Source of the DNA: an uncultured Gammaproteobacteria bacterium
GTDB lineage: Bacteria > Patescibacteriota > Microgenomatia > UBA10105 > UBA927
Assembly (NCBI GenBank): GCA_964609895.1
Contig: CAZSTG010000001.1
Coordinates: 59,202 to 123,201 of the forward strand
Direction: 5' to 3'
DNA length: 64,000 nucleotides
Of the stretch, positions 6,291 through 56,935 are shown in pieces (the stretch's first letter is position 1; each line of letters begins with the position of its first letter). Both the position numbers and the translations under genes were made by a program. A model generated the notes under the pieces. The model saw only the letters and a list, made by a program, of their open reading frames with translations. It was not told the origin of the DNA and did not search any database.

Positions 6291-7550
6291 ATGCTCCGTA
6301 GGGTAAAACATAGAATTGCCAGTTTCATGCCTGCGCTCCGGTCTCCCAACTACCGGCTGTTTTTTGTGGGACAAGGCATATCCCTTGTCGGTTCATGGAT
6401 GCAGTCCGTGGCCGAACAATGGCTTGTGTATCCGGTGTTAACTACGAATCAGGCACTCCTCGGATACATCAGTATTGTGAATATGATTCCAACATTGCTG
6501 TTTGTTTTGTTTGCGGGTGTGTTGGTTGACCGAATGAACAAACGGAACATGTTTATAGGATTCCAGATCATCTACGCCGCCATTGCATTTTCCCTGTATC
6601 TGCTCATCGTGACGCATCATATACAGCTATGGCATATTTTCGCGGCGGCCGCCATCGGGGGCATCATTTTTTCTTTTGAAAATCCGACACGGCAGACGTT
6701 TATGATGGAGCTTGTTGAAAAACAACATTTGCCATCAGCAATGTCGTTGTCTTCGGCGTTGTTTAATACCGCACGCGCCATTGGACCTGCTATTGCGGGT
6801 ATTGTTATTGCGACTCTTGGCATTGCCCCAGCATATTTCATAAACAGCATTAGTTTTTTTGCCGTGATTACTAGTTTGTTGTTTATGAAGTTTCCTAAAC
6901 AGCAACAGGAGGAGGATAAAGAAGTGAAGCCGTTTTTTGAAGGATTAAAAGAGGGATTAGTCTACATCAAAACGCATAAGGTGTACCTTGCAATTCTTGC
7001 GATCGTTGGAACGATGACATTTTTTAGCTGGCCCGCCTCCATTTTACAGCCAGTATTTGCGCACGATATTTTTAAAAAAGGAGAACTCGGGTTTGGTCTG
7101 ATACAAAGTTCATTTGGTATTGGTGCCATGATGGGAGGGATCACATTCTCCAAGATATTTGAAAAACTCAAATACAAACACCGGTTACTGTTTATTGCAA
7201 TTGCCGTTGAAGTGTTGATGATGATTGGTTATGTGTGGTCTCCATGGTTTTGGCTTGCCTTGGTGTTTCAGATGATAGGAGGGTGGGCAATCTCAACAAC
7301 ATACTCCATCTGCGGAACGCTCATGATTATAGCTATTCCTGATTACTTACGCGGAAGATTCTCCAGTATTTATACATTTGTCTTTATGGGATGTATGCCG
7401 TTTGGTGCAATGCTTTCCAGTTTGCTTGTTGGCATCTTAGGTCCTCAAGTGCTTGTAACACTGTGTGCAATTGGGATTGCAGTAACAATTACAGTACTCA
7501 TAACAGGACTCAAAGGGAAGTTCCAAGAAAAAATCGCCGCGATGGTATAA
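6291..7550 (+). CDS. MFS transporter (12-TM)
   Basis: 419 aa, multiple hydrophobic helices, MFS-like loop motif ...GVLVDRMNKR... Confidence 0.8.
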   Translation: MLRRVKHRIASFMPALRSPNYRLFFVGQGISLVGSWMQSVAEQWLVYPVLTTNQALLGYISIVNMIPTLLFVLFAGVLVDRMNKRNMFIGFQIIYAAIAFSLYLLIVTHHIQLWHIFAAAAIGGIIFSFENPTRQTFMMELVEKQHLPSAMSLSSALFNTARAIGPAIAGIVIATLGIAPAYFINSISFFAVITSLLFMKFPKQQQEEDKEVKPFFEGLKEGLVYIKTHKVYLAILAIVGTMTFFSWPASILQPVFAHDIFKKGELGFGLIQSSFGIGAMMGGITFSKIFEKLKYKHRLLFIAIAVEVLMMIGYVWSPWFWLALVFQMIGGWAISTTYSICGTLMIIAIPDYLRGRFSSIYTFVFMGCMPFGAMLSSLLVGILGPQVLVTLCAIGIAVTITVLITGLKGKFQEKIAAMV

Positions 7551-7557
7551 TATTTGT

Positions 7558-8181
7558 ATGAAATTTGTTATCGTTCATGGTGCATTTGGTTCCATAAAAG
7601 AAAATTGGTTTTCAGATTTACAAAACGATTTATTAGCCCTTGGTCAAGAGGTTATTCTTCCACAATTTCCAGTTGATGATTGGGATAAGATAACAAACGC
7701 TGGCCCAACAATTCCACAAGAACACCAGTATCTAAAAAACTGGTTGGCCACATTTGAGCCTATTGCAAAAACATGTAAACCAACAGATCAACTATGTTTT
7801 ATTGGTCATTCATTGGGTCCAGTTTTTATTCTTCATGTTGTTGAACAATTTCAATTACAACTCAACAGTGCAATTTTTGTCAGTCCGTTTATGGAATCGC
7901 TTCATTCTAAAGAATACTGGCAATTTGATCACGTTAATGATAGTTTTTATAAAAAAGATTTTGATTTTGCAGCAATGAAAAAACAAATCCCATTTTCTTA
8001 CGTAGTTTATTCAGATAATGATCCATATGTTGATAAAAAATTCCCCTTAGCATTTGCTGCATCACTTGGAAGTTCTTTGATACCAGTTGTCAACGCGGGT
8101 CATGTAAGTAATCCAAGGTATGAGTCATTATTACTTGAATTGTGTAAGACGAGAATAGATATAGCTTCATACTCGAAATAA
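7558..8181 (+). CDS. Alpha/beta-hydrolase, serine hydrolase (RBBP9/YdeN-like)
   Basis: MKFVIVHG...FIGHSLG (GHSLG nucleophile motif)...DNDPYV. The gene is distinctly AT-rich compared with its neighbours. Confidence 0.7.
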   Translation: MKFVIVHGAFGSIKENWFSDLQNDLLALGQEVILPQFPVDDWDKITNAGPTIPQEHQYLKNWLATFEPIAKTCKPTDQLCFIGHSLGPVFILHVVEQFQLQLNSAIFVSPFMESLHSKEYWQFDHVNDSFYKKDFDFAAMKKQIPFSYVVYSDNDPYVDKKFPLAFAASLGSSLIPVVNAGHVSNPRYESLLLELCKTRIDIASYSK

Positions 8182-8207
8182 CTATTCGGTGTTATAATCT
8201 TTTCACT

Positions 8208-28739: not shown

Positions 28740-30638
28740 ATGGCTAAAATTATAGGAATTGATCTCGGTACCACAAATTCATGTGTTGCCATTATGGAAG
28801 GCGGATCACCAAAAGTGATTCATTCAGAAGAAGGAAGAAACACAATCCCTTCCGTCGTTGACCCAATCAAAAATATCGTTGGTGATGTCGCTAAACGGCA
28901 GGTCGTCATTCATCCGGAATCCACAGTCTTTTCCGTGAAGCGGCTTGTGGGACGAAAGTTTTCTGACAAAAGTGTCGAGACAGACAAAAAATGGTTGCCA
29001 TACACGATCAAAGCAGGGAAAAATGATATGGCAGTGGTGGAAGTGGGCGGTAAACAATTCACCCCACAGGAAATTTCTGCAATGATTTTGTCCAAAATCA
29101 AAAAGGATGCGGAAAAGTATCTTGGTGGTACTGTCACACAGGCAGTCATTACCGTACCTGCATATTTTGATGACAGTCAGAGACAGGCCACCAAACAGGC
29201 AGGAGAAATTGCAGGACTTGAGGTGCTCCGTATCTTAAACGAGCCGACAGCTGCAGCACTTGCCTACGGACTCGACAAGAAAAATGCACACACCATCGCA
29301 GTCTACGATCTTGGTGGAGGAACATTTGATATTTCCATTCTTGAACTCGGTGAGGGTGTGTATGAAGTGAAAGCAACCAATGGAGACACGCATCTTGGAG
29401 GAGATGATTTTGACAAGCATGTGTTGGATTTCCTTGCGGATGAATTTAAGAAAGAACACGGCGTGGATCTCCGGAAAGATCCGCAGGCACTGCAACGGCT
29501 CCGTGATGCTGCAGAAAAAGCAAAGATTGAACTGTCTACTTCTCTAGAGACAGAAATCAATTTGCCGTTCATCACTCAAGGGAAAGATGGTCCAGTGCAT
29601 TTGGTCACTAAATTGTCACGGGCAAAATTGGAAGCACTGGTTGATGATCTCATCAGAAAATCAATTGAGCCGGTCAAAAAATGTTTGGCTGATGCAAAAA
29701 TTGATGTCAAAAAAATTGATGAAGTGGTCTTGGTCGGAGGAATGACCAGAATGCCAAAAGTCGTGGAAGTGGTGAAAGAATTCTTTGGCAAACAACCAAA
29801 CCAGTCCGTCAATCCTGATGAAGTGGTGGCAATTGGTGCAGCAGTGCAAGCAGGAGTCTTGGCAGGGGATGTGAAAGATGTTGTACTTCTCGATGTCACG
29901 CCGCTCACGCTTGGACTGGAAACGCTTGGTGCAGTATCCACACCGCTCATTCCAAGAAATACAACGGTCCCAACCAGCAAAACGGAGATTTTCTCAACTG
30001 CTGCCGACAATCAGACATCAGTGGAAATCAATGTTTTGCAGGGTGAGCGATCGATGGCAGCTGATAACAAGTCACTCGGTCGGTTTATCCTTTCGGGTAT
30101 CCCACCTGCACCGCGCGGTGTGCCGCAGGTTGAGGTAACCTTTGACATCGATGCGTCAGGTATTTTGAATGTCACTGCAAAAGACAAAGCAACCGGAAAA
30201 GTGAGCACGATTAAGATCACTGGTTCCACAGGACTTTCCAAAGATGAGGTGGAAAAGATGAAAAAAGAAGCGGAAGAACATGCTGCGGAAGATACGGAGA
30301 AGAAAGAAAAGATTGAGGTGAAGAATCGTGCGGAAAACTCCATCTATGTTGCCGAAAAAACCATCAAGGATGCAGGTGACAAAGCAAAACCGGAAGACAA
30401 AACTGCGGTTGAGGAAAAAATTAAAGCCTTAAAAGATATCCTTGAAACTGGTAGCAAAGAGGATTTGGAAGCAAAAACCAATGAACTGTCAGAGGTGATA
30501 CAAAAAGTAGGTGCTTCCATGTATCAAAAACCGGAAGGCACGCCGGAAGGGCAACCTGCAGGAGAAGAACCGAAAGCAGAAGAAGCGGGTGCAGCAAAAG
30601 ACGAGAAAAAGGTTGAAGAAGGCGAAGTCGTGAGCTAA
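28740..30638 (+). CDS. dnaK: Chaperone DnaK (Hsp70)
   Basis: [22 protein letters not shown]...[12 protein letters not shown]...[12 protein letters not shown]... SD aaggagg 28722-28728. Confidence 0.97.
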
Positions 30639-30665
30639 AAAAAGAAAAAAATAGTATTTTGGAAG

Positions 30666-30700
30666 CATCCCGCGAATTTGTTCATGCGGGATGTTTCCGG
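30666..30700 (+). terminator. Hairpin (8-bp perfect stem catcccgc/gcgggatg, 12-nt loop) followed by a T-rich tract, between dnaK and dnaJ. Candidate partial intrinsic terminator.
   Basis: catcccgc (30666-30673) ... gcgggatg (30686-30693) then tttccggttt. Confidence 0.5.
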
Positions 30701-30720
30701 TTTATATATAATGTATCGTT

Positions 30721-31620
30721 ATGGCGAGTAAAAAAGACTATTACGAAGTATTGGGAGTTTCTAAATCAGCAAGCGCTGAGGAACTGAAGAAAGCATACCG
30801 CAAACTTGCGCTGGAATGGCATCCCGACAGAAACAAGTCGGCAAACGCAAACGAAAAATTCAAAGAGATAAATGAAGCATACGCAGTGCTTTCCGATACG
30901 AAGAAACGCGCGACATATGACCAGTTCGGCGCGGACGCATTTGCCCCAGGATCGGGCATGGGTGGCGGCGCAGGACAGGGGCCATTTGGCGGATTTGGCG
31001 GGCAAGGACCATTTCAGTATTCGTATTCTTCATCAGGTGGCAATCCGTTCGGCAACGATTTTGTCGATCCGTTTGAAATATTCGAACAATTCTTCGGCGG
31101 TGGATTCGGCGGAGCACGGGGTGGCGGCAGACAGCGAAGAAACGCCTATGAAATTTCCATTTCCTTCATGGAAGCGGTACACGGCGTGACCAAGGAAGTG
31201 ATGGTACCGAAAGGACAGGCAGGCGAGGGATCAATGAAAAAGACCATCAAAATCCCTGCAGGTGTCGATTCAGGATCCCGCATCCGGTTTGATGAGTTTG
31301 ATATCGTGATTTCTGTGCAAAAAAGCAACGAATTTGTGCGGGAAGGCGATGATATCGTCGTGACGCACGAAATTCCATTTACCAAAGCAGCGCTTGGCGG
31401 CATAGAAGAAGTGCCTACCATAGATAAGCCTGTAAAAATCAGAATACCTGCAGGAACGCAGGCGGGCACACTTATCCGGCTTCGCGGGCAGGGTGTGCCG
31501 CACGTCAGGGGTGGAGGTCGGGGGGATGAATACGTTAAGATTCAGCTCAAAGTGCCAACAAAGCTGTCACGACGGCAAAAAGAGCTTTTGGACGAGCTAG
31601 ATGCCACAATGCATGAATAA
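30721..31620 (+). CDS. dnaJ: DnaJ-family co-chaperone (J-domain + G/F-rich region + C-terminal substrate-binding domains; no CxxCxGxG zinc-finger repeats, CbpA/type II-like)
   Basis: [33 protein letters not shown] (J-domain, HPD). Gly/Phe-rich tract. No Cys-repeat zinc finger visible. Confidence 0.85.
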
Positions 31621-31650
31621 TTGACGATATTTTCGCTTCTGTGCTATACT
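31621..31650 (+). promoter_or_regulatory. Candidate sigma70-like promoter TTGACG-18-TATACT upstream of nusA
   Basis: ttgacg 31621-31626; tatact 31645-31650. Confidence 0.4.
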
Positions 31651-31673
31651 ACCTGATAGTTGAAGTGTTTGTG

Positions 31674-31700
31674 AGGTGGGCCTGAAACCCGCCTTTTTTT
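31674..31700 (+). terminator. Hairpin with a G·U wobble (GGUGGG/CCCGCC) plus a T7 run. Terminator of dnaJ or an attenuator in the nusA leader.
   Basis: aggtgggcctgaaacccgcc followed by ttttttt (31694-31700). Confidence 0.5.
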
Positions 31701-31719
31701 ATAAATAAGGAATAAACAT

Positions 31720-32835
31720 ATGCCAGCAACAGTCAGAAGCGAATTTTCACTCGCATTAAACCAAGTAGCAACCGAACGCGGACTCGATCCGAAAATTGTT
31801 CTCGAAACAATCCGTGCCGCCATTCTTGCCGCATATCGCAAGGATTACGGCTCCGATGAACTCGATCTGTATACAGTTGAGGTTGATGGAGATACAGGGG
31901 AGGCAAAAGTCCTCAAAGAAGGCAAAGATGTCACTCCTCCAGGATTTGGCCGCATTGCGGCGCAAACTGCTAAACAAGTCATTTTACAGAGAATTCGAGA
32001 AGCGGAAAAGCAGGCGGTGCTTTCCGACTATCAGACAAAAATTGGCAATATCGTTCCAGGAATGATTCTTCGTTTTGACGGACCGAATGTCGTTGTCGAC
32101 ATCGGCAGAACGCAGGCAATCATGCCTGTATCCGAACAGAATCAGGGCGAACGCTATCACTTAAATCAGCGACTGACTTTTTATATCGATGGTATTCGTG
32201 AAACACCACGTGGGAACGAAATTATCGTTTCTCGTGCTAGCAAAGGCTTGGTCGAAGGATTGTTTGCGAGAGAAGTACCAGAAGTTGCGCAGGGCGCAGT
32301 TGAACTTCGGACAGTGGTCAGAGAAGCGGGCGGACGCACTAAAGTAGCAGTATTTTCCAAACAATCAGGTGTTGATCCAGTGGGATCTTGTGTCGGACAA
32401 AAAGGTGTGCGTGTGACAGCGGTCATCAACGAACTTGGTGGCAACGAAAAAGTGGACATTATCCAATGGAGTGATGAGCCAAAGGCATTTATCATTGCAG
32501 CCTTAGCTCCCGCAAAAGACATGGATGTCACGCTTGATGAGGCGACCAAAACAGCAACAGTCAAAGTACCGGAAGATCAGTTGTCTCTTGCCATCGGCCG
32601 TGACGGACAAAATGTCAGACTTGCGGCAAAACTGACAGGGTGGAAAATTGATATTCAAGGAAAAGAAGGTACAAAACCGGTCGCTGACGTGGTAACACCG
32701 GAAACCACAAATGTGGAAGTGGCAGAACCCGTCAAGGAAGAACAACCGGTAGAGAAAAAAGAAGAGGAAGCACCGGCAGAAACACTAGAAGAACCGAAAG
32801 CAGACGTTGCAGTTCCAGCAAATACGACGGAATAA
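31720..32835 (+). CDS. nusA: Transcription termination/antitermination factor NusA
   Basis: ...LALNQVATERGLDPKIVLETIRAAILAAYRK..., S1 and two KH regions (VGSCVGQKGVRV...; LAIGRDGQNVRLAAKLTGWKIDI), acidic C-terminal tail. Confidence 0.92.
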   Translation: MPATVRSEFSLALNQVATERGLDPKIVLETIRAAILAAYRKDYGSDELDLYTVEVDGDTGEAKVLKEGKDVTPPGFGRIAAQTAKQVILQRIREAEKQAVLSDYQTKIGNIVPGMILRFDGPNVVVDIGRTQAIMPVSEQNQGERYHLNQRLTFYIDGIRETPRGNEIIVSRASKGLVEGLFAREVPEVAQGAVELRTVVREAGGRTKVAVFSKQSGVDPVGSCVGQKGVRVTAVINELGGNEKVDIIQWSDEPKAFIIAALAPAKDMDVTLDEATKTATVKVPEDQLSLAIGRDGQNVRLAAKLTGWKIDIQGKEGTKPVADVVTPETTNVEVAEPVKEEQPVEKKEEEAPAETLEEPKADVAVPANTTE

Positions 32836-32871
32836 ACGTATGAGCGGATCAATTGTTACGAGTGAAGGAAT

Positions 32872-34326
32872 ATGGCCAAAAAAGACAAAGCACCAGAGAG
32901 TACTCAATTTCGACCGCCGATCGTTGCGGTATTAGGCCACGTTGACCACGGCAAAACTTCCTTGTTAGACTACATCAGAAAATCCCATGTTGCGGCAGGG
33001 GAACATGGCGGTATTACACAGGCCATCGGTGCATATCAGATTCCGGGAATTACCTTCATCGATACGCCGGGGCACGAAGCATTTGCAAAAATGCGTTCCC
33101 GTGGTGCCATGGTGTCTGATATTGCAATTCTTGTAGTTGCAGCCGATGACGGCGTGATGCCGCAGACAAAAGAATCCATTCGGATGATCCAGGAAGCGGG
33201 AGTTACGATGATCGTTGCCATCAACAAAATTGACATGGAAGCGGCAAACGTGGATAAGGTAAAACAGGATTTGGCGAGAAACGGCGTACAAGTGGAAGGA
33301 TTCGGTGGAGATATTCCCTGTGTTTCCGTTTCCGCAAAAGCAGGGACGGGTGTCAAAGAACTTCTCGACACGATTAAAGTTGCTGCAGAAATGAAAGAAC
33401 TGAAAAATGAGCCCGACGCACCAATGGAAGCAGTTGTCATCGAAAACAGAATCGATAAAGGCAAGGGTATGGTGGCAACAGTTGTTGTGAAAAAGGGAAC
33501 ACTCAAATTTGGAAGTCCATTGTTTGACGGCGAGAAACAGGTGGCAAAAGTGAGAGCAATGTTTGATGAAAACGGCACGGGCGTCGCTGCTGCCGGCCCT
33601 TCCAAGCCGGTCGAAGTTTTGGGGTTTACCGCACTTCCACAGGTGGGCGCAGTGTTGACGACTGTGGCTGTTGCCAAAGCAGAAGTGGCACAAGACAAAA
33701 CAGTAGATAGTGCACAATCTGTTGCTGATTTCTTGGCGGCTATGAACGGCAAGAAAAAACTTGCCATCATCGTGAAAGCGGATGTGTACGGATCACTGGA
33801 GGCAATTCTTGAGGCACTTGGCGATGATGTCGATATCGTGACAGCGGGTGTTGGAGAGATCAACGATGCGGATGTTTTGATGGCTAAATCCACGGGCGCA
33901 TTTGTCATCGGATTTAATGTGAAACTCAAGCAGGAAATCGAAAAACTTGCACAGATAGAAGGCGTCATCTGCAGAACATACACGATTATCTATGAACTGC
34001 TCGACGAACTACATGACGTTATCGAAGGCGCTATGGAAGTCATCTCCAAAGAGCGCGAACTGGGTACTGCCAGAATTCTTGCGGAATTTCCATTCTCGGG
34101 CGTGCGGATTGCGGGTATCAAAGTGCTTTCCGGTCGTATCGCCAAAGGCGATCAGGTAAAAGTTATGCGGAAAGAGGAAGAAATCGGACGTGCAAAGATC
34201 AAATCTGTCAGGCACGGGAAAGAGGAAGAAACACGTATGGATGTGGGAGATGAATGCGGATTGTTGTTTGATAAAATCGTTGATTTCGCGATTGGCGATG
34301 ATATAATTGCGTTTACGAACCATTAA
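32872..34326 (+). CDS. infB: Translation initiation factor IF-2 (short form lacking the long N-terminal region)
   Basis: PPIVAVLGHVDHGKTSLLDYIRKS...ITFIDTPGHEAF...NKID (G1-G4 GTPase motifs). C-terminal beta-barrel domains. Confidence 0.92.
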   Translation: MAKKDKAPESTQFRPPIVAVLGHVDHGKTSLLDYIRKSHVAAGEHGGITQAIGAYQIPGITFIDTPGHEAFAKMRSRGAMVSDIAILVVAADDGVMPQTKESIRMIQEAGVTMIVAINKIDMEAANVDKVKQDLARNGVQVEGFGGDIPCVSVSAKAGTGVKELLDTIKVAAEMKELKNEPDAPMEAVVIENRIDKGKGMVATVVVKKGTLKFGSPLFDGEKQVAKVRAMFDENGTGVAAAGPSKPVEVLGFTALPQVGAVLTTVAVAKAEVAQDKTVDSAQSVADFLAAMNGKKKLAIIVKADVYGSLEAILEALGDDVDIVTAGVGEINDADVLMAKSTGAFVIGFNVKLKQEIEKLAQIEGVICRTYTIIYELLDELHDVIEGAMEVISKERELGTARILAEFPFSGVRIAGIKVLSGRIAKGDQVKVMRKEEEIGRAKIKSVRHGKEEETRMDVGDECGLLFDKIVDFAIGDDIIAFTNH

Positions 34327-34377: not shown

Positions 34378-35343
34378 ATGGATGAAGCAACACAGACAGA
34401 TATTCTTCGAATCAAAGACCTCACTGCGCAGGCAAAAGATGTTTTAATCCTCACACATAAAGACCCAACAGCTGACGGCATCGGAAGTGCACTGGCACTG
34501 TATGTTGCGATGAAAAATGCAGGGAAGCATGTGGTGATTGGCTGTCCGACACCGATGATTGTGGAATTTTCCTCGTTTGTGGGTGCGGACAAAGTGGAAA
34601 CTAAATTTTCCAAGAAAAACTTTGTTATTTCCCTCGACTATGAGGACGGATCCATCGATAAGGTGACGTACAACATCGAAGGACAGAAATTTAACCTCAT
34701 TATTGAGCCGCGTCCGGGGTTTGAAAACTTCAATGAAGAGCATGTAAGTTTTCATCACAAGGGAACTGCGGCTGATGTCATTTTTATCATCGACACCATG
34801 CACCTCGGTGAACTGGGAGAATTGTATGAAGGGGAGAAGGAACTGTTTGCAACACGACCGATCATCAATATCGACAAACATATTGAGAACGCAAAATATG
34901 GTGCAGTAAACATTATCGATCATGCGGCAACAACAGCAGAACTTGTGGCAACGGTGATGTCGGAAATTGGCACACCACTGACGGAAGACATCGCAACAAA
35001 CCTTTTAAATGCAATCTACAGCGCATCAAATAATTTTCAAGAAATTACTGCGCGGACATTTGAAGTGGCAGCAGCGTGTGTGAAAGCAGGAGGAAAACGA
35101 TTCCCCACTGAACTGCCCGTTGCGCCGGAATTTATCAAAGAACTTTCCCAACCTGTTGTTGATGAAAAACCACAGGAAGTTGCAGCACCTCAGCCTCAGC
35201 CAAAGCCTGATCGTCCTTTGGACGATGCAGCTCAAACGATTTCCGCTCCACCTATTGAACCTGAAAAAACGCCTGCACAACCTCAAAATCCGCCGGAAGA
35301 TTGGTTAAAACCAAAGATATTTAAGAGTTCATCGATTGCTTAA
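34378..35343 (+). CDS. DHH-family phosphoesterase (NrnA-like nanoRNase / pAp phosphatase) with a Pro/Gln-rich C-terminal tail
   Basis: ...LILTHKDPTADGIGSALAL (DHH motif II context)...IIDHAATTAEL..., C-terminus ...PQEVAAPQPQPKPDRP...PAQPQNPPEDW. Confidence 0.7.
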   Translation: MDEATQTDILRIKDLTAQAKDVLILTHKDPTADGIGSALALYVAMKNAGKHVVIGCPTPMIVEFSSFVGADKVETKFSKKNFVISLDYEDGSIDKVTYNIEGQKFNLIIEPRPGFENFNEEHVSFHHKGTAADVIFIIDTMHLGELGELYEGEKELFATRPIINIDKHIENAKYGAVNIIDHAATTAELVATVMSEIGTPLTEDIATNLLNAIYSASNNFQEITARTFEVAAACVKAGGKRFPTELPVAPEFIKELSQPVVDEKPQEVAAPQPQPKPDRPLDDAAQTISAPPIEPEKTPAQPQNPPEDWLKPKIFKSSSIA

Positions 35344-35346
35344 AAT

Positions 35347-35682
35347 ATGTTTAAGCTGCAGAAAATAGTTCCAATAATTAAAGAATTGTTGAGGTACTTT
35401 GCGTTTTTAGTAGAAGAAATTCCTAACATCTTAACTATTATTGTCGTTCCAACATTTTTAGGAATGTTTGTTTTACTTCCCAACATAAATAATTGGATTT
35501 CAAGTATTATTACAGTTCTTTTAATGCTTTTTTTATTCGTTCGAAGTTTTAGATATTTAAATGTTAAAAATTTAAGTACCCTATGGATGGTGTATTTAGG
35601 AATTACAGGTTTTGCCTTATTTATGTTTGAAGCATGTGTGATACTTGTCGCGATTGAAAATGCTAAATTGAATTTTAAATAA
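35347..35682 (+). CDS. Small hydrophobic membrane protein at the start of the AT-rich island
   Basis: 111 aa, 3 predicted TM helices. The AT-rich composition matches the downstream R-M genes. Confidence 0.4.
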   Translation: MFKLQKIVPIIKELLRYFAFLVEEIPNILTIIVVPTFLGMFVLLPNINNWISSIITVLLMLFLFVRSFRYLNVKNLSTLWMVYLGITGFALFMFEACVILVAIENAKLNFK

Positions 35683-35730
35683 TTCGGATTTTTAAATTTT
35701 TACAATTTCTATTCATAGAAATTCTTTAGA

Positions 35731-35759
35731 TTCACCCAAAGTTAGTAATGGGTTATAAT
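35731..35759 (+). promoter_or_regulatory. Candidate promoter TTCACC-17-TATAAT for the first methyltransferase gene (the -10 lies inside the annotated ORF start; the true start may be ATG 35772)
   Basis: ttcacc 35731-35736; tataat 35754-35759; in-frame ATG 35772 (MNKNFQSTKPIVIDLF). Confidence 0.4.
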
Positions 35760-36851
35760 GTAATTCCGATAATGAATAAAAATTTTCAATCCACTAAACC
35801 TATCGTTATTGACCTCTTTTCTGGTTGTGGAGGATTATCATATGGATTTTCTCAAGCGGGGTATGATGTTAGATTAGGAATAGATAATGATGAAACTGCT
35901 TTAAAAACTTTTGAATTAAACCATCCACATAGCAAAGGTGTAAATATTGATTTATCAGATAAATTTGCGATTAGTAAGATTAAAAAAATATTAGGTAATT
36001 CTAAGGTAGACGTTATTATCGGTGGTCCACCCTGTCAAGGATTTTCTTTAACAGGTACAAGAAAATTTGATGATGATCGAAATAAATTATATTTGTCTGT
36101 TATAAAGGCTGTAAAAGAATTAAAACCAAAAGCTTTTATGATAGAAAATGTAACTGGGATGGCCACCTTATATAAAGGAAAGGTAAAAGAAGAAATTATA
36201 AAGAGATTTAATAAATTAGGTTATAACGTCAATAGTCAAGTTTTATGTGCGGCTGACTATGGAGTACCTCAGATACGAAAAAGATTAATATTTATTGGAT
36301 TAAGAAAAAAATTAGGTGAATACGATTTCCCAATACCAACAAATAATCCAACAAATTATATATCTACCGCAGATGCCATAAGCGATTTACCTTCTCGAGA
36401 AAATAATATTGGTATTGAAGCAGATCAATATTTAAATAAACCAAAAACTGAATATCAAATTTTAATGAGAAAAAATTCAATTAAACTTTATAATCATGTT
36501 GCGACAATTCATTCTAAAAAGGTTATAGACGTGATTAAACTGGTACCAGAAGGGAAAAATTATAAAAGTTTACCAGAAGGCGTCGGCTCTCATAGAAAAT
36601 TTCATGAAGCTTGGACACGTTATCATAGTAAAAAACCTTCAAGGACTATCGACACAGGCCATCGTAATCATTTTCACTATAAGTATAATAGAGTTCCTAC
36701 AGTTCGCGAGAACGCCAGATTGCAATCCTTTCCAGATGTGTTTATTTTTCTTGGAAGTAAAACTCAGCAGAATAAGCATGTTGGCAATGCCGTTCCACCA
36801 CTACTAGGATATTGCGTTGCTAAAAAACTTTTACCTTATCTAAAAAAGTAG
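35748..36851 (+). CDS. DNA (cytosine-5)-methyltransferase (Dcm family), M1
   Basis: Motif I VIDLFSGCGGLSYGF; motif IV GGPPCQGFS; motif VI ENV; motif VIII QIRKRLIFIG; motif X GNAVPPLL. Confidence 0.92.
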   Translation: MGYNVIPIMNKNFQSTKPIVIDLFSGCGGLSYGFSQAGYDVRLGIDNDETALKTFELNHPHSKGVNIDLSDKFAISKIKKILGNSKVDVIIGGPPCQGFSLTGTRKFDDDRNKLYLSVIKAVKELKPKAFMIENVTGMATLYKGKVKEEIIKRFNKLGYNVNSQVLCAADYGVPQIRKRLIFIGLRKKLGEYDFPIPTNNPTNYISTADAISDLPSRENNIGIEADQYLNKPKTEYQILMRKNSIKLYNHVATIHSKKVIDVIKLVPEGKNYKSLPEGVGSHRKFHEAWTRYHSKKPSRTIDTGHRNHFHYKYNRVPTVRENARLQSFPDVFIFLGSKTQQNKHVGNAVPPLLGYCVAKKLLPYLKK

Positions 36852-36880
36852 CTAAAAATTTTAATTGCATCACGTTCAAT

Positions 36881-38110
36881 ATGAGGAAACTTAATGTTAT
36901 AGATTTGTTTGCCGGATGTGGAGGTTTAACTGATGGTTTTGAACAATCAGGTTTTTTTAAAACTCTAGCTTGTGTTGAATGGGATAAATCTTGTTGTGCA
37001 ACATTAGCTAAAAGATTAGCAAATAAATGGAATTATAAAAATGGTTCTGAAGTTGTTATCAGGTATGACATACAAAAAACTGCAGATTTGCTAAAAGGAT
37101 TTAATGATCCAAAATACGGATTTAATCTTGGGTTAAATAAACTTATTGAAAATAAAGTCGATTTATTGATTGGTGGTCCTCCATGTCAGGCGTATTCAGT
37201 TGCTGGTAGAATTAGAGACAAACACGGAATGCAACTAGATTATCGTAATTATCTTTTTGAAAGTTATATTAAAGTATTAGATAAATTTAGGCCAGAAATA
37301 TTTATTTTTGAAAATGTTTTAGGACTACTGAGTGCAAAGCCAGGTGGTGTTTCTATCATTAATAGAATAAAAAAAGCTTTTTCACAAATCGGTTATGAAA
37401 TTGTCGATGACATAAGGGGAAATGCAGTTTTTGACGTTGCGGATTATGGAGTTCCTCAAATAAGAAAACGTGTTATATTACTTGGTTTAAATAAAAATGT
37501 GTATAAAGAAAATAGGCAAAAAATTTTAATTGATTTTTATCAAAATATATTACCCTCATTTAAAGAACAACATAGGAAAACAGTTAAAGATGCAATTTTT
37601 GACCTTCCAAAATTTCAAATAAATAAATTAGAAATTGATTCAAACAACAAAGTGCAACCACATTTTTCTGAATCCATGTCTATATTAAATCATTATCCAA
37701 GATATCATAGTAAAAGAGATATTCAAATATTTTATGAATTAGCTTTGGATCAAAGTAAGGGGAATAAAAAATTTCATTCAGTTAAGGATATCAAAAAATT
37801 ATATACAGAAAAAACCGGTAAAATTTCTAATGTACATAAATATTTTGTTTTAAAATGGAATGAGCCTAGTAATACAATAGTTGCGCATCTATATAAAGAT
37901 GGGTTAAGACATATACATCCAGATTATAAGCAAGCGAGATCGATTTCCGTGCGTGAAGCGGCACGACTACAGTCGTTCGATGACGATTTTGAATTTTTAG
38001 GATCAATGGGTGATCAATATAAAATGATTGGAAATGCAGTTCCTCCGCTCTTTGCTAAAAAATTAGCTTGTGCCGTGCACAAGTTTAAAGTTAAATATAA
38101 TGGAGTATAA
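36881..38110 (+). CDS. DNA (cytosine-5)-methyltransferase (Dcm family), M2
   Basis: VIDLFAGCGGLTDGF; GGPPCQAYSVAGR; FENV; QIRKRVILLG; GNAVPPLF. The second adjacent m5C MTase has a distinct target-recognition domain insert. Confidence 0.92.
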   Translation: MRKLNVIDLFAGCGGLTDGFEQSGFFKTLACVEWDKSCCATLAKRLANKWNYKNGSEVVIRYDIQKTADLLKGFNDPKYGFNLGLNKLIENKVDLLIGGPPCQAYSVAGRIRDKHGMQLDYRNYLFESYIKVLDKFRPEIFIFENVLGLLSAKPGGVSIINRIKKAFSQIGYEIVDDIRGNAVFDVADYGVPQIRKRVILLGLNKNVYKENRQKILIDFYQNILPSFKEQHRKTVKDAIFDLPKFQINKLEIDSNNKVQPHFSESMSILNHYPRYHSKRDIQIFYELALDQSKGNKKFHSVKDIKKLYTEKTGKISNVHKYFVLKWNEPSNTIVAHLYKDGLRHIHPDYKQARSISVREAARLQSFDDDFEFLGSMGDQYKMIGNAVPPLFAKKLACAVHKFKVKYNGV

Positions 38111-38118
38111 TAAGATAA

Positions 38119-39117
38119 ATGAATGAACAGATATTATATATTCATAAACTGAACGCCCAAGAATTGGGTTTTAGACACGGTTCTTCTCATAAGGCTGGAA
38201 GATATATATATGTATCAAAAAAGTATTTAAATTTTTTTCCTCAATTAAGTGAATCGATTAAAAACGATCATATTCTTATTGATATTATTCCACCCGATTC
38301 TGACAAATTAATTTTGACTAATTATGTTTATCATAACGATAAAATAGTAGATTCAAAATCAAATGGTAGAAATGAATTTAGAATTTATTTGAATGAAGGA
38401 AATGATTTAGAAGGAAATTATTATCAGCCAAATGATATTGTTGTTATTCAGTCAGTAAAAATTGATGATAGTGCAACGTATAAAATATATAAATTTGACC
38501 AAATTCAACATGGTGTTGTATATCGACAACTTGACGAGTTATTGCGTAGATATGATAGTGCAGGAGCTTCTCATGCAATGATTCCGTTTGATGAACTTAA
38601 ATTTTTATCTATTCCTCAATATCCTACCGTAGATTTACAAAGTAAAGTTTTACCAAATGATGTAAAAGAAACAATTTTTAGTGCCCCAGTAGGTGTTTCA
38701 CTTCCATCTGAAGGGGAAGTGATTCGAAAAATTCGAAGCGCTAATTTTCGCGACTTAGTTCTCATGTTTTATGATTATAAATGTGCCGTCACTGGTAGAA
38801 GTAAAATAATTGAATATGGAACATTAACAAATCTTGAAGCGGCACATATTTATGCTTTTTCTAAAAGTGGAGGAGATAATCCATCAAACGGAATACCTTT
38901 GATTAAGGATATCCATTGGGCTTTTGATAATGGATTTTTTACTTTGACACCAGAATTTAAAATAAAAGTACATGATAATGCAATGAAAATTTCTTATTTA
39001 GCTGAATATAACAATAGGATTATAAATTTACCTGAAGATTCAAGAGCTAGACCTAATATGTCATCAATTGAGTGGCATAATAAGAATGTATTTGGTCAAT
39101 TTGTTAGGAAACAGTAA
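38119..39117 (+). CDS. Putative restriction endonuclease: N-terminal DNA-recognition domain fused to a C-terminal HNH nuclease domain
   Basis: C-terminal region CAVTGRSKI...LEAAHIYAFSKSGGDNPSNGIPLIKDIHWAFDNGFF matches the HNH (ββα-Me) signature (Cys/His-His...Asn...His). Immediately downstream of, and co-oriented with, the two MTases. Confidence 0.7.
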   Translation: MNEQILYIHKLNAQELGFRHGSSHKAGRYIYVSKKYLNFFPQLSESIKNDHILIDIIPPDSDKLILTNYVYHNDKIVDSKSNGRNEFRIYLNEGNDLEGNYYQPNDIVVIQSVKIDDSATYKIYKFDQIQHGVVYRQLDELLRRYDSAGASHAMIPFDELKFLSIPQYPTVDLQSKVLPNDVKETIFSAPVGVSLPSEGEVIRKIRSANFRDLVLMFYDYKCAVTGRSKIIEYGTLTNLEAAHIYAFSKSGGDNPSNGIPLIKDIHWAFDNGFFTLTPEFKIKVHDNAMKISYLAEYNNRIINLPEDSRARPNMSSIEWHNKNVFGQFVRKQ

Positions 39118-39276
39118 TTTTTTGCAGAGGTTAGTTTTATGAAGTTTGTTCCAAAATAACCTTAAGATTTGATCTTCGTTTCGATTTGTTATATACCAAC
39201 GGTAATCGATTTTGCTCCTTAAGAAGTTGGCGAGGATAACTTTCTCCCCAATAATTTGGGTTTCAGTTTATTTCAG

Positions 39277-39297
39277 CCCTCCTCGAGAGGGTATTTT
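39277..39297 (+). terminator. Intrinsic-terminator-like hairpin (CCCTC-ctcga-GAGGG) + TATTTT downstream of the endonuclease gene
   Basis: ccctcctcgagagggtatttt at 39277-39297. Confidence 0.5.
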
Positions 39298-39356
39298 AAA
39301 AATGCTTTCTCGGGGGAGGCAGTATTTAGACTTCCCAAATTTATTATAGAGAGGAG

Positions 39357-39542
39357 GTGAAAGGTATGGCATACTTTGTTATCTATACGGATTATAAAGG
39401 AGAATACCGTTGGAGGTTAAAAGCCAATAACGGTGAAATAGTTGCAGATAGTGAAGGTTATCAAACCAAACAATCGGCAATAAATTCGGCAAATTGGGTA
39501 AAAACCAATGCGCCTAATGCATCCATACAGGATCAAGTCTAA
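39357..39542 (+). CDS. DUF1508/YegP-family small protein
   Basis: MAYFVIYTDYKGEYRWRLKANNGEIVADSEGYQTKQSAINSANWVKTNA. Matches the YegP/UPF0339 repeat pattern (KGEYRFRLKA.NGEII..SEGY..K......I). Strong RBS gagaggaggtg upstream. Confidence 0.7.
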   Translation: MKGMAYFVIYTDYKGEYRWRLKANNGEIVADSEGYQTKQSAINSANWVKTNAPNASIQDQV

Positions 39543-39550
39543 CACTTGAT

Positions 39551-40075
39551 TCACGCCTCGTCAGCTTTTTGAGGAGCTATTTTAATATATACTCTAACTT
39601 TTCCTCGTTTTAGAATCAGCTTTTTTCTGAGCGCTTCGAGAAGATAGGGAATGCTCAGATATTGTGCGAGTTGTTTTATGAGAAGTTTTTGTACTTCCAT
39701 TGGTAACGCAAACACATTTGGTGCTTCCATAAACCTAGCGGCATTTGTCAGATGTTGGAGGATAGGACAGGAGGACATCACACAGAGTGATTTTTCTTTT
39801 TGTTTTTCAACAACGGTGTTGAATAGTAATTTTCCTAGTCCTTTTCCCTGAAATCTTAGGAGTGTGACAAGCGGCCCGATTTTTACCCAGTTTTTTGTTT
39901 CAGCTATGCAGCACACCCCTGCAAATTCTTTGTCCACAAAGATACAGTATGGATTTGGATATCGTTTCCAGTTTTTTCGATCGACGAATGCGAGGTCTGG
40001 CGCGGTTTTGATGGAGGAAATAAGCTCGGTAATTTCTTGTTCCGTGAGCGTGTGTTTTTCGATTGTGACTTGCAT
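39551..40075 (-). CDS. GNAT-family N-acetyltransferase
   Basis: ...LRFQGKGLGKLLFNTVVEKQ (acetyl-CoA-binding Q/RxxGxG/A motif). Confidence 0.75.
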   Translation of the reverse strand: MQVTIEKHTLTEQEITELISSIKTAPDLAFVDRKNWKRYPNPYCIFVDKEFAGVCCIAETKNWVKIGPLVTLLRFQGKGLGKLLFNTVVEKQKEKSLCVMSSCPILQHLTNAARFMEAPNVFALPMEVQKLLIKQLAQYLSIPYLLEALRKKLILKRGKVRVYIKIAPQKADEA

Positions 40076-40151
40076 TTATTTGATTATACTATGAGGAAAG
40101 AAGATTTTAGGCTAACTAGCACTATGATGACATAAGGAAATCGTTATAATG

Positions 40152-40739
40152 TCATCTCATGGGTGGATCAGACAGACGCGTGCTTGACTCATGTCTCGGA
40201 TGTAAATAACCTCTTTCGATCGCATTACTAACTGTCTTTATATTACCCCTCCATTTTTCTTCGGGAATTTTAGAAAAACCTCCAGTAAGCCATTTCCCAT
40301 CAACTATTAAGGAATGATCTTGCAAAAATCCAACGTTAATTTCAGACCAAGTTTCTTCATCTGTCCCACGCCATTGAGAAAAATTTTTATTCCATTTTAG
40401 TGTAATAGTGAAATATTTTTTATCAGTTGGATCTGTTTCTTTGTACGCGTAATTTTTCGCGAAAGAAGAATCTTCTCCATAGTAATCTGAAGGCGTCATT
40501 GGCCATTTTTCCATACCAGAGATAAGTTTCAGTAATTCATTAGTCAATTCATCAATTTGACTGGATTCAAAGCATTCTCGAAGTTGGGCAGTTTTAGCGG
40601 CTTCACGTCGTTCTCTGTTATTCTGTTGAATTAAATCCGTTGATTTTTGTTGACTGAGCAGTGTTTGGTCACGTCGGAGCTTTGCGTTTGCCTCTTGTGT
40701 TTGGGTGATAATTTGAGTTTTTAATCTTTCAAATGCCAT
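40152..40739 (-). CDS. Hypothetical protein (N-terminal Gln-rich coiled coil, C-terminal Trp-rich globular region), AT-rich
   Basis: 195 aa ORF. No recognisable motif. Codon usage and GC are similar to the island. Confidence 0.45.
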   Translation of the reverse strand: MAFERLKTQIITQTQEANAKLRRDQTLLSQQKSTDLIQQNNRERREAAKTAQLRECFESSQIDELTNELLKLISGMEKWPMTPSDYYGEDSSFAKNYAYKETDPTDKKYFTITLKWNKNFSQWRGTDEETWSEINVGFLQDHSLIVDGKWLTGGFSKIPEEKWRGNIKTVSNAIERGYLHPRHESSTRLSDPPMR

Positions 40740-53630: not shown

Positions 53631-53894
53631 ATGGATCCAGTACAGATAACGATCATCGTAATAAGCTTCATTTTAGTCACCCTCATTGTCATTTTGACGA
53701 TTCAGACGATCGGCATCATGAAAGAATTCAAGTTAACAGTGCAAAAAATTAATAAGATGCTTGATGACGGCGGAAAAGTCACGGGTATTGTGAGTGATTC
53801 AGCTACAAGTATTGCGGGTGTGATTGGCGGCATTAAAACTGGTATGAATGTGTTTTCGATGTTTCGTCGGAAAGGAGAATCCCATGAACAATGA
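53631..53894 (+). CDS. Small membrane protein (DUF948-like: N-terminal TM + short coiled region)
   Basis: MDPVQITIIVISFILVTLIVILTIQTIGIMKEFKLTVQKINKMLDD... Confidence 0.5.
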   Translation: MDPVQITIIVISFILVTLIVILTIQTIGIMKEFKLTVQKINKMLDDGGKVTGIVSDSATSIAGVIGGIKTGMNVFSMFRRKGESHEQ

Positions 53895-54264
53895 CAGAGA
53901 CAATAAGTTTATGATCGGTTTTTTCATCGGGGGACTCATCGGCGCAGGCGTCATGTTTTTGATGGGAACAAAAGAAGGAAAAAAAGTTGAGAAGATGTTG
54001 GAGAGGAAAGGAAAAGAGGCACTGGATGATATAGAAGACAAAGTGGATGAACTGAAGGAAAAAGGGGAAGAACTGTTGAAAAAAGGCGAAGCGATTAAGG
54101 AACAAGTGCTGGAACAAATCGAAGATAAAAAAGATGACTTAACGGAAGAAGCGTCAAGACGCTTAGATAGTGCGCTTGCAAATGTCGTGGAGATTCAGGA
54201 AAAAGGTGTTGCAACAACCACCAACCTTCGGAAGCGCCTGTTCAAGAACGTGCCAAAGAGATAA
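53884..54264 (+). CDS. YtxH-like protein (Gly-rich N-terminal helix + coiled-coil)
   Basis: MNNDRDNKFMIGFFIGGLIGAGVMFLMGTKEGKKVEKMLERKGKEALDDIEDKVDELKEKGEELLKKGE. Start reset to ATG 53884. Confidence 0.6.
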   Translation: MNNDRDNKFMIGFFIGGLIGAGVMFLMGTKEGKKVEKMLERKGKEALDDIEDKVDELKEKGEELLKKGEAIKEQVLEQIEDKKDDLTEEASRRLDSALANVVEIQEKGVATTTNLRKRLFKNVPKR

Positions 54265-54339
54265 TAATTATTTCTTCTTGCAAAACTACGTCTCCTGTCC
54301 TATGGTAGTGCTTAGGTTATTCTTTAAGGAGGACTTCCT

Positions 54340-55284
54340 ATGAAGATTGCGATCTTTTTGCCGAAAACTGTTTTTACAGAGAATCAACTTCAAAAACTAT
54401 CCGGTCTTGGTGATGTTGTTTTTACCGCAGATGATAAAGAAATGACACTTGATGCGTGTATAGCGCACGCAAAAGATGCAGAAATCTTAGGAATTGATCT
54501 TGATAATTTTGGAGGATTTGATAAAGGACGTGAACAAACGACAAAACTCTTGCTTGCAAGTCCTTCAGTAAAAGGCATTTCATTGTCTACAACCTCTTTT
54601 GGTTGGGTGGATTTGGAGTACTGCAAAAAACAGAACATTCCTGTTTGTAATGTCCCCGGATATTCCCGCGAATCTGTTGCTGAACACACCATTGCACTGC
54701 TGATGTGTATGGCAAAACGAATATTGCTTTCTGACAGGCGCACGCAAAAAGGTGAGTTTAAAATGGAAATGGGATTCGAACTCGCAGGCAAAACACTCGG
54801 TATTATCGGACTTGGAAATATCGGTACGCGAACGGCAGAACTTGCACGGGGGATTGGCATGAACGTGATTGCATATAATCATTCGCCAAAGACCGTTTCC
54901 GGTGTGACGATGAAAACGTTGGATGAGGTACTTGCAGAATCTGATGCAATCGCATTTCATACAACACATACGGACGCAAACAAAGGATTTATTGGAAAAG
55001 AACAAATTGCAAAAATGAAAAAAGGTGTGATCATCGTTAACACTGCTGATGAAACACTCGTAGATGAGGCGGCAATGGCGGAAGCATTAAAGAGTGGTCA
55101 GGTCGATACCTATACAAGTGAGGGAACCCTATTTGAAGGCACGCCGCTTGCCGGTATGGAGCGGGCGATAGGGCTTAAAGGATTCGGTTATTTTACAAAA
55201 GAGGCACTGCAGAATCTATTTGAAATATTTGTCGAAAATATCGAGGCGTTAGTTCAAGGAAAACCAATTCATACAGTTCAGTAA
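54340..55284 (+). CDS. D-isomer-specific 2-hydroxyacid dehydrogenase (NAD-binding; glyoxylate/hydroxypyruvate reductase or PGDH-like)
   Basis: GKTLGIIGLGNIGTRTAELARGIGMNVIAYN (Rossmann GxGxxG)...catalytic His/Glu/Arg context (AIAFHTTHTD). Confidence 0.8.
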   Translation: MKIAIFLPKTVFTENQLQKLSGLGDVVFTADDKEMTLDACIAHAKDAEILGIDLDNFGGFDKGREQTTKLLLASPSVKGISLSTTSFGWVDLEYCKKQNIPVCNVPGYSRESVAEHTIALLMCMAKRILLSDRRTQKGEFKMEMGFELAGKTLGIIGLGNIGTRTAELARGIGMNVIAYNHSPKTVSGVTMKTLDEVLAESDAIAFHTTHTDANKGFIGKEQIAKMKKGVIIVNTADETLVDEAAMAEALKSGQVDTYTSEGTLFEGTPLAGMERAIGLKGFGYFTKEALQNLFEIFVENIEALVQGKPIHTVQ

Positions 55285-55295
55285 TCATAATATAT

Positions 55296-55748
55296 ATGGA
55301 TAATGTGATTTTTTCTAAAGTAAAAACAGATAAAGATTGGGAGTTGTTGCTAGAGTTGGAGAAGAAAGCGGCAGATTGTAGTCCGTATTATTTGGCCTTC
55401 ACTAATATTACTGATCTAAAAAAATTTGTTGGTGACAGTGTTATTTATCTTATGTTTGAATCAAGAATTCCTATCGGTCACGTAGAGTATGAATTAAAAA
55501 ATAATAGAGCAGAAATCACGGGCTTTGTATTATTGCCGGAATATAGAGGAAAAGGTTTAGGAAAATTATTATTTGGAAAGGCAATGGATGATTTGAAAGA
55601 GATAAAAAATATTTTTCTTATGACCCATCCAGAAAATACAGCTGCTTTAAAAGTATATCTTTCAGCAGGATTTACAATCAAAGCATGGAAGGATAATTAT
55701 TACGGCAACGGTCAACCCAGACTGCAATTAGAAATAAATAGAGGATAA
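55296..55748 (+). CDS. GNAT-family N-acetyltransferase (AT-rich)
   Basis: ...LLPEYRGKGLGKLLFGKAMDD... acetyl-CoA motif. Confidence 0.75.
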   Translation: MDNVIFSKVKTDKDWELLLELEKKAADCSPYYLAFTNITDLKKFVGDSVIYLMFESRIPIGHVEYELKNNRAEITGFVLLPEYRGKGLGKLLFGKAMDDLKEIKNIFLMTHPENTAALKVYLSAGFTIKAWKDNYYGNGQPRLQLEINRG

Positions 55749-55750
55749 TT

Positions 55751-56935
55751 TCATCTTCCTTTGTGGTTTTTTAGAAGAACTATTGTCGTTGGTATTGTTG
55801 TTACAACAGTGAGTATTCCAAGACTAAACATCACCCATCCGCTTCCAAGTTTTGTAAGTATTGGATTTAATGCAAACGTTAAAAGAAAATAAACAAGACT
55901 CACACTCATGTTGAGCGCAGAAATAGCTGTTGCGCGGTATTTCGATTCAAACTCTTGGTTGGTATATTGATCAAGAAATGTAAATCGGACGATACTGATG
56001 AAATAGATGAGGAAGATCATAATTGCAGCACCGATTTTGGGTACAAAGGGAGAGGGTAAAAATCCAAGCATCATGATGATTGGGAAAAGCGTATAAGTTG
56101 CTGTTTTTGAAAGAATTTTTTTCTTTGTTAGAACGATACTTAATACTCCAACGAATAGACTGTTGATTGCAGACAACCATCCACGTGTGACTGGAGAAAA
56201 TCCGACATCTGTCATGTAGGCATTTAAGAGGAAATAAAGATAATACCACGTAATTCCTCCGATAGAGATGTAGTACAGAGAAAAATCTCTGATATATGGA
56301 GTTTTCCATAGTTCTGCAAATCCTCGTTTTGTTTGCCGGATGTAATTTGATAATGTGAATTTTTCTGTATCAATATGGGGTTCGACCATAAAAAGAGTAA
56401 TGATACCGGAAATGATCATCGATACACCGACCAATGTGTATGGAAGTCCTTTGTTGAGAAGAAAGATATATCCGCCAAGCGCCGTTCCGATGATGACGCC
56501 TATTCGATACACCATTTCATTTTCGCTGACTTTCACATTGAAGGATTGTTCCTCGTGAAGTTCTTTCAACGTATCGTAATACAACGCGATATTTGCGCCC
56601 GAGATAAATGTGTTGCCGATCTGTGCAATCACATATCCTGCCCATAGCCATGAGACATCTTTCGCACATGCGATCACGATCCAAGCTGCGCCATGAATCG
56701 CATATCCGAAGGCGACGATAATTTTTCTGCCGAGAAGATCGGCAAGCGCGCCGGTTGGTAGTTCTAAAATGACTGCAATGAGATGTGTGACAGCATAGAT
56801 AACTGCGAGTGTCGCACCGTCAGTAAATTGTGTTTCGTAGGCATACCAGATCGGCATGAAAAACAGTAGAGAGTTAAAAAACCACGAGATGCGGTAGAGA
56901 ATGAGATTCTTTCGGAGGTTGTCTTGATAGGACAT
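55751..56935 (-). CDS. MFS transporter
   Basis: 394 aa, 12 predicted TM helices. Confidence 0.75.
   Translation of the reverse strand: MSYQDNLRKNLILYRISWFFNSLLFFMPIWYAYETQFTDGATLAVIYAVTHLIAVILELPTGALADLLGRKIIVAFGYAIHGAAWIVIACAKDVSWLWAGYVIAQIGNTFISGANIALYYDTLKELHEEQSFNVKVSENEMVYRIGVIIGTALGGYIFLLNKGLPYTLVGVSMIISGIITLFMVEPHIDTEKFTLSNYIRQTKRGFAELWKTPYIRDFSLYYISIGGITWYYLYFLLNAYMTDVGFSPVTRGWLSAINSLFVGVLSIVLTKKKILSKTATYTLFPIIMMLGFLPSPFVPKIGAAIMIFLIYFISIVRFTFLDQYTNQEFESKYRATAISALNMSVSLVYFLLTFALNPILTKLGSGWVMFSLGILTVVTTIPTTIVLLKNHKGR

Follow-up and report, generated by a model that had tools for sequence, protein, structure and literature searches.

Several restriction systems carry a B3-like DNA-binding domain, joined in each case to its own kind of nuclease. 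BfiI/BmrI (Type IIS, ACTGGG 5/4) joins a C-terminal B3 reader to a non-specific, metal-independent PLD nuclease at its N-terminus and is protected by N4-methylation of cytosines (PMC3973309); EcoRII (Type IIE, CCWGG) has an N-terminal B3-like domain, which is an allosteric effector and not the sole reader, together with a PD-(D/E)XK catalytic domain, a pseudopalindromic site and one methylase. The LlaJI system (GACGC) consists of two 5-methylcytosine (5mC) methylases, a B3-McrB-like R1 and a McrC-like R2. TagI (SRA-HNH) and VcaM4I (EVE-HNH) use readers that flip and bind 5mC or 5-hydroxymethylcytosine (5hmC), and they have no partner methylases. Here we describe a gene, termed R, in a 64,000-nucleotide stretch of contig CAZSTG010000001.1 from an uncultured bacterium (the window), where it follows two methyltransferase genes, M1 and M2. 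R has the reader-linker helix-HNH plan of McrA, TagI and VcaM4I, with the modified-base reader (SRA, EVE) replaced by a predicted B3-like pseudobarrel; each part is of a known kind, and it is the domain combination, not the fold, that is new. Very probably, R serves as the restriction endonuclease in a cassette of M1, M2 and R, which would form a restriction-modification (R-M) system of Type II, most likely Type IIS-like.

Compared with these systems, R resembles BfiI in joining a B3 reader to a non-specific nuclease, but the order of the two domains is reversed, the nuclease is of the HNH kind, both methylases are of the C5 type and the sequence identity is only 18%. A classification of R as a BfiI/NgoFVII PLD-type enzyme was rejected, as Pfam gave no PLD match. 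EcoRII shares with R the N-terminal position of the B3-like domain and the Y-x-N ... R-N-E-x-R motif of the C-arm, and no other B3-like structure was reached by the family profile at the sequence level. LlaJI follows the same logic as that proposed for R, in which a Type IV-type scaffold, a B3 reader and two C5 methylases yield a methylation-sensitive enzyme with an asymmetric site (PMC1459862, PMC7680126). BpuJI (CCCGT) has two C5 methylases flanking its R gene, one per strand, but it differs in its reader, which has another fold (BpuJI_N), in its PD-(D/E)XK-like nuclease and in its second methylase, which bears no relation to M2. HphI, MnlI, Hin4II/HpyAV and Eco31I, which are Type IIS enzymes with an HNH nuclease, cleave next to an asymmetric site; the searches gave no match of R to any of them in sequence or fold, and no B3-like reader is described for them in the literature searched. 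A literature search for a restriction enzyme combining a B3-like reader with a McrA/TagI-type HNH nuclease found none, REBASE being outside its scope.

The open reading frame (ORF) of R runs from ATG to stop at exactly 38119-39117 on the forward (+) strand, and its translation of 332 amino acids (aa) starts MNEQILYIHKLNAQELGFRHGSSHKAGRYIYVSKKY (= MNEQILYIHKLNAQELGF). R is the third gene of a tight, co-oriented trio with intergenic gaps of 29 and 8 nucleotides (nt), and the trio sits in an island of low GC content (0.29-0.34, compared with about 0.47 in the flanks) that is inserted among housekeeping genes, namely dnaK, dnaJ, nusA, infB and a DHH-family gene upstream and rpsO and pnp downstream. 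The features of the locus are as follows.

35344-39550 (no strand): low-GC island with the R-M cassette, between the DHH-family gene (34378-35343) and the GNAT/rpsO region, delimited by GC content, ORF map and Pfam.
35748-36851 (+): M1, a C5 cytosine DNA methyltransferase, 367 aa, complete (PF00145, E 9.6e-74; TIGR00675).
36881-38110 (+): M2, a second C5 cytosine DNA methyltransferase, 409 aa, complete (PF00145, E 1.7e-61).
38119-39117 (+): R, the 332-aa predicted B3-like plus HNH endonuclease (ORF, 218 homologues, AlphaFold model).

M1 and M2 are only about 33% identical to each other. Full-length homologues of R (about 330 aa; n = 218) were found in database proteins from Patescibacteria, Omnitrophota, Bacteroidota, Bacillota, Campylobacterota, Cyanobacteria and one archaeon; NCBI labels homologues only as 'HNH endonuclease'. 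An alignment of 50 homologues contained 34 invariant columns, distributed over both halves of the protein. About half of these lie within the N-terminal 100 residues (Y7, E15, L16, G17, G27, F40, P41, N49, D50, H72, N73, R84, E86, R88, Y90 and N92), and the remainder, including H243, N257 and H266, lie in the HNH part. With 218 full-length homologues and invariant columns in both halves, the ORF is not a chance reading frame.

Evidence for the function of R comes from its neighbours. A scan of one genome per species gave 80 loci with an R homologue, and orthologues were identified by tblastn. Both M1 and M2 orthologues were located directly beside the R homologue in 75 of the 80 loci (94%), across many phyla; counted singly, M1 orthologues adjoined it in 77 loci and M2 orthologues in 76. 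The genes were mostly co-oriented with very short gaps, and four gene orders occurred: 39 loci with M1-M2-R, 31 with R-M1-M2, 4 convergent and 1 divergent. The median identities were 62% for M1, 56% for M2 and 36% for R, and M1 and M2 were each kept as a separate orthologue line. A linkage that persists although the genes have repeatedly been reordered, and in which the methylases are better conserved than the nuclease, characterises classical R-M systems; the endonuclease is also adjacent to, and conserved with, its cognate methyltransferases, as is expected for Type II. This agrees with an earlier note on this DNA, made from the sequence alone, which had named R as the likely restriction endonuclease of the island. 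The five exceptions comprise three loci cut by contig ends (L013, L075 and L082), one visibly decayed (L035) and one with diverged methylases (L077).

In the decayed locus, an HNH_2 paralogue stands at the place of M2 and M1 is truncated, which suggests a locus in the course of decay. Extra C5 methyltransferase genes lie directly upstream of the R homologue, besides M1 and M2, in L073 (7046-7972), L081 (7031-7948) and L076 (4-2998), and further C5 methyltransferases take this position instead of M1/M2 orthologues in L077 (4470-7773); there are one to three per locus, with about 30-48% identity to M1 or M2. The closest relatives of R, M1 and M2 are from Paceibacterota, Saccharibacteria, Nomurabacteria and Omnitrophota metagenome-assembled genomes, and the cassette of the window is also present, 100% identical, on two Logan contigs (L001 and L002). 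Together with a short IF-2, these relatives make the host look like a bacterium of the Patescibacteria (CPR) type with a small genome.

An AlphaFold2 model of R, built on the homologue alignment, was confident throughout, with a mean predicted local distance difference test score (pLDDT) of 94.2 and a predicted template modelling score (pTM) of 0.87. Together with the alignments to EcoRII, TagI and VcaM4I, it divides the protein as follows.

38119-38688 (+): residues ~1-190, B3-like (BfiI-C/EcoRII-N type) DNA-binding pseudobarrel and predicted sequence reader, with an approximate boundary.
38149-38205 (+): residues 11-29 (LNAQELGFRHGSSHKAGRY), predicted N-arm of the reader, aligning with EcoRII LSANDTGATGGHQVG.
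38329-38385 (+): residues 71-89 (YHNDK...RNEFR), predicted C-arm with invariant H72, N73, R84, E86 and R88, from the EcoRII alignment.
38716-38769 (+): residues 200-217, long linker helix before the HNH core (AlphaFold model; alignable with the pre-HNH region of TagI/VcaM4I).
38770-39018 (+): residues 218-300, HNH (beta-beta-alpha-metal) nuclease core, with catalytic H243 (38845-38847), N257 (38887-38889) and H266 (38914-38916).
39019-39114 (+): residues 301-332, C-terminal helices of the HNH module (WHxxNVFG motif), aligning with the VcaM4I C-terminus YHRENVF.

The model shows the N-terminal domain as a seven-stranded, open pseudobarrel of the B3-like, DNA-binding kind; it is divergent and belongs to a branch without a curated model. 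Its best fold match was to the BfiI C-terminal recognition domain with DNA (15.0; 148 residues, root-mean-square deviation 2.9 A), followed by EcoRII-N (11.2), UbaLAI B3 (9.9), the LlaJI.R1 N-domain (9.2), the plant B3 domains of FUS3 (9.0), VRN1 (8.0) and RAV1 (7.3), and NgoAVII B3 (5.5); Foldseek on the model returned the same B3-like families. A sequence profile of the reader that included members from other architectures matched EcoRII-N when compared with the whole Protein Data Bank (PDB), with E 1.9e-4 and an alignment spanning only residues 5-88. This alignment places Y71-H72-N73-D74-K75 of R on Y84-Y85-N86-S87-R88 of EcoRII and R84-N85-E86-F87-R88 on R94-N95-E96-K97-R98, so that the invariant E86-x-R88 falls on the (D/E)XR motif E96-x-R98. 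In EcoRII (E96-x-R98) and BfiI (D282-x-R284), this C-arm motif reads TGG and contacts cytosine N4 (PMC3973309). In the putative N-arm, E15, L16, G17 and G27 are invariant and R19, R28 and Y29 are conserved to at least 90%; its role in R would be the one carried over from BfiI-C and EcoRII-N (PMC3973309).

The earlier note had found no recognisable motif in the N-terminal part and had suggested that it might form an undescribed DNA-recognition fold. The first observation held, since Pfam gave no match in residues 1-194 even at E<=10; the second is refuted by the B3-like assignment, which at the same time strengthens a role in DNA recognition, and the structure prediction and Foldseek search of this domain that had been proposed as a check returned known B3-like families and no new fold. 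Among relatives of the reader, sub-threshold Pfam matches were seen for P0134 (BfiI_DBD, 23 bits; cut-off 25) and P0184 (EcoRII-N, 21.2 bits; cut-off 25). Scans of the N-terminal half of R with Pfam, NCBIfam and PADLOC gave no match, the matches of PADLOC and NCBIfam being confined to the HNH half, and a single-sequence search of the PDB with R found only TagI, through the HNH part.

The reader also occurs with other effectors. A profile of residues 1-131 of R gave only 237 matches among 1.84 billion representative proteins, mostly HNH fusions; the reader is therefore a small subfamily. Its invariant ELG...R and R-[DN]-E-x-R motifs are kept across architectures, and R84, E86 and R88 of the C-arm remain invariant in them. 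The reader was found N-terminal to a McrB-like AAA+ domain (P0177, P0226) or a GHKL ATPase (P0184, P0214), C-terminal to a DUF6339 protein (P0134, P0191), behind a helix-turn-helix (HTH) domain (P0168, P0179) and duplicated in front of HNH (P0121). Where it is fused to a GHKL ATPase (L087, L090, L091), a McrB-like AAA+ domain (L086, L089) or a 665-aa protein (L092), M2 orthologues, and usually M1 orthologues, lie beside it. L086 (4008-10407) and L089 (4188-9675) have exactly the LlaJI layout, with an HTH gene, a gene for the reader with McrB-like AAA_5 and McrB_lid domains and a McrC-like gene; the M2 orthologue (48% and 46% identity, respectively) is on the opposite strand, and the second methylase of L086 is not an M1 orthologue. 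The reader thus accompanies the methylases whatever its effector, as would be predicted for a domain that recognises the sequence protected by them, and this supports the earlier suggestion that the N-terminal part of R is the specificity domain.

L092 contains M1, M2 and the 665-aa B3 protein (P0151, 1585-3582). The match of P0151 to R covers the B3-like domain and linker and the first part of the HNH module and is lost directly ahead of the catalytic His (…NLE / IFDEYG); the remaining ~400 aa of P0151 gave no Pfam match. Either the effector has been replaced, or the gene has been rearranged or has decayed.

Conversely, the methylases are found with other nucleases. On Lactococcus lactis plasmid p275D (L083, 5762-9181), M1 (60%) and M2 (52%) orthologues accompany a 349-aa nuclease of PLD (RE_NgoFVII) and B3-like (RE_NgoFVII_C) domains and two small HTH genes. 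BLASTP of R against this PLD-B3 enzyme showed no similarity; the two readers are therefore not close relatives, and the p275D enzyme had no sequence match in the PDB. On the Acinetobacter plasmid pANC7914.1 (L084, 4998-8385) and a Photobacterium plasmid (L085, 5995-8044), a methyltransferase 52-54% identical to M1 flanks a BpuJI_N plus NOV_C endonuclease, and the second methylase is unrelated to M2.

In the C-terminal half, the HNH domain named in the earlier note was readily confirmed: the only Pfam match in R is HNH_2 (PF13391) at residues 222-276, with 40.9 bits and a gathering cut-off of 21. The similarity to the linker-plus-HNH module of TagI and VcaM4I extends from about residue 175 to the C-terminus and includes the long helix and the WHxxNVF helices, in which P305, P312, G326 and F328 are invariant. 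The H243/N257/H266 triad is intact and invariant, and it aligns with the experimentally assigned H224, N241 and D250 of VcaM4I, the metal ligand being His (H266) in R and Asp (D250) in VcaM4I. In VcaM4I, the HNH domains dimerise and generate products with 1-nt 3' overhangs; the dimer is autoinhibited by the linker helix, and the HNH domain on its own is toxic and cuts without specificity (PMC7897488). Because this domain alone is non-specific, specificity must come from the reader. By analogy with VcaM4I, dimerisation, autoinhibition by the linker helix and 1-nt 3' overhangs are our working expectation for R.

NCBIfam NF045808, the phosphorothioated-DNA-binding restriction endonuclease family, matched R with 76.4 bits over model positions 137-283, which correspond to the HNH half; this score is far under the cut-off of 180, and R was not accepted as a member. 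HNH_2-type paralogues with 27-30% identity to the HNH half of R only are encoded near the cassette in Sphingobacterium and Fulvivirga loci (L021, 1424-1825 and 15289-15741; L035, 7206-7622).

From the computed fold, motifs and gene linkage, we infer the direction of methylation sensitivity, the dimerisation, the cut position and the target in the following scheme. M1 and M2 would each methylate one strand of an asymmetric site. The B3-like domain would read the unmethylated site in the major groove through the N-arm (~11-29) and the C-arm (~71-89, with E86-x-R88). On binding, the HNH domain, which probably is dimeric and has little specificity of its own, would be released from inhibition by the linker helix and would cut both strands near the site, using one metal ion and the H243/N257/H266 triad. 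5-methylation by M1 and M2 would block the binding of the reader and thereby protect the host.

In an alternative that retains a restriction role, the B3-like domain would serve mainly as an allosteric effector or a sensor of a second site, or R would only nick; in either case R would differ from a simple Type IIS enzyme acting at one site. In EcoRII, the N-domain is an effector with an autoinhibitory function, BfiI binds two sites, TagI-type enzymes need two sites and the linker helix of VcaM4I, which is autoinhibitory, has an equivalent in residues 200-217 of R. However, recognition must still come from the B3-like domain, since no specificity element is evident in the HNH module itself. The alternative fits the present results as well as the Type IIS-like scheme does, and is a refinement of it. 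We regard it as unlikely in comparison with that scheme.

A more distant possibility is that R is a modification-dependent (Type IV/IIM) nuclease like TagI, VcaM4I and McrA, which cuts modified foreign DNA and adjoins the methyltransferases incidentally. Its HNH module is indeed closest to those of TagI, VcaM4I and ScoMcrA, and there is the partial match (76 bits) to the phosphorothioate-DNA restriction family, but this match lies far under its cut-off and in the HNH half only, and outside that half the reader is B3-like, with no PUA, SRA, EVE or SBD domain by Pfam or by fold. For modification-dependent enzymes of the PUA-HNH kind, a DNA methyltransferase gene is present within 3 kb in <6% of cases (PMC6765204), whereas both methylases lie beside R in 75 of 80 loci. 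In addition, two C5 methylases encoded in the same operon as a 5mC-dependent nuclease would expose the host to attack by it, except where their specificities did not overlap. We therefore judge this explanation to be quite improbable. The earlier note had allowed for a homing or McrA-type methyl-dependent nuclease unrelated to the adjacent methyltransferases; the McrA/TagI type of the HNH module was borne out, but the lack of a relation to the methyltransferases was not. It is hardly credible that R lacks a restriction role and is instead a mobile HNH endonuclease of the homing type or a DNA-binding protein that has decayed or is regulatory: HNH domains are common in homing endonucleases and NCBI gives no other label, but 34 alignment columns and the catalytic triad do not vary between phyla, the full-length architecture is kept in 218 homologues, and the context shows no intron or intein and a conserved linkage to two methylases.

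Several observations nevertheless weigh against a methylation-sensitive Type IIS-like enzyme. The closest relatives of the HNH module (TagI, VcaM4I, ScoMcrA and phosphorothioate-dependent enzymes) all cut modified DNA. None of the Pfam models B3, EcoRII-N, BfiI_DBD and RE_NgoFVII_C matches R itself (residues 1-194, E<=10), and the domain boundary (~190) and the arm assignments rest on the predicted model and the profile alignment of residues 5-88. A scan for k-mer under-representation in the 80 host loci and the window yielded no asymmetric candidate site. Its outliers were generic palindromes only (GGCC, GATC, CCWGG), and ACTGGG, CCCGC, CCCGT, GACGC and GCCGC gave no useful signal.

Two leads to the target may be mentioned. 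By analogy with the conserved (D/E)XR motif, the site of R may possibly hold NGG/TGG opposite CC. M1-type methylases are shared with BpuJI-like systems: the methyltransferase beside the BpuJI_N-type endonuclease of the Acinetobacter plasmid resembles M1 also within the target-recognition region, which may hint at one strand of the target. The sites of FauI/SmuI (CCCGC) and BceAI and BfiI-like sites were also considered as specificities, and we claim none of them.

If R functions as proposed, the nuclease partners of the B3-like reader, represented by EcoRII, BfiI, NgoAVII, UbaLAI and LlaJI, now include HNH, and the reader-linker-HNH scaffold of modification-dependent enzymes also exists tied to protective methylases, which parallels the relation of LlaJI to McrBC. 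R belongs to a compact (~330 aa) and widespread family of probable Type IIS enzymes that may be mined for specificities and used as a modular reader-nuclease chassis. The linked loci represent a natural effector-swap set around one methylase pair, useful for studying the modularity of readers and effectors.

With regard to the surroundings of the cassette, the low-GC region also contains a 111-aa hydrophobic ORF with no family match (35347-35682) and a DUF1508 protein of 61 aa (39357-39542); a GNAT acetyltransferase lies at its edge (39551-40075, - strand), followed by a 195-aa ORF with no Pfam or PADLOC match (40152-40739, - strand). As far as inspected, none of these small genes (35347-40739) was seen to recur beside R homologues elsewhere. 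A promoter scan of the island performed no better than on shuffled sequence, and the promoter/terminator scan was uninformative. Two further regions of the window have a lowered GC content (0.37-0.41). The region at 53848-56935 encodes YtxH, a 2-hydroxyacid dehydrogenase, a GNAT protein and an MFS transporter, and that at 6291-11114 encodes an MFS transporter, a serine hydrolase and a UvrD-helicase plus PD-(D/E)XK (AddA-like) protein; in the two regions, nothing is defence-related except this helicase-nuclease. The IF-2 encoded in the region 28740-34326 of the window is short, with 484 aa.
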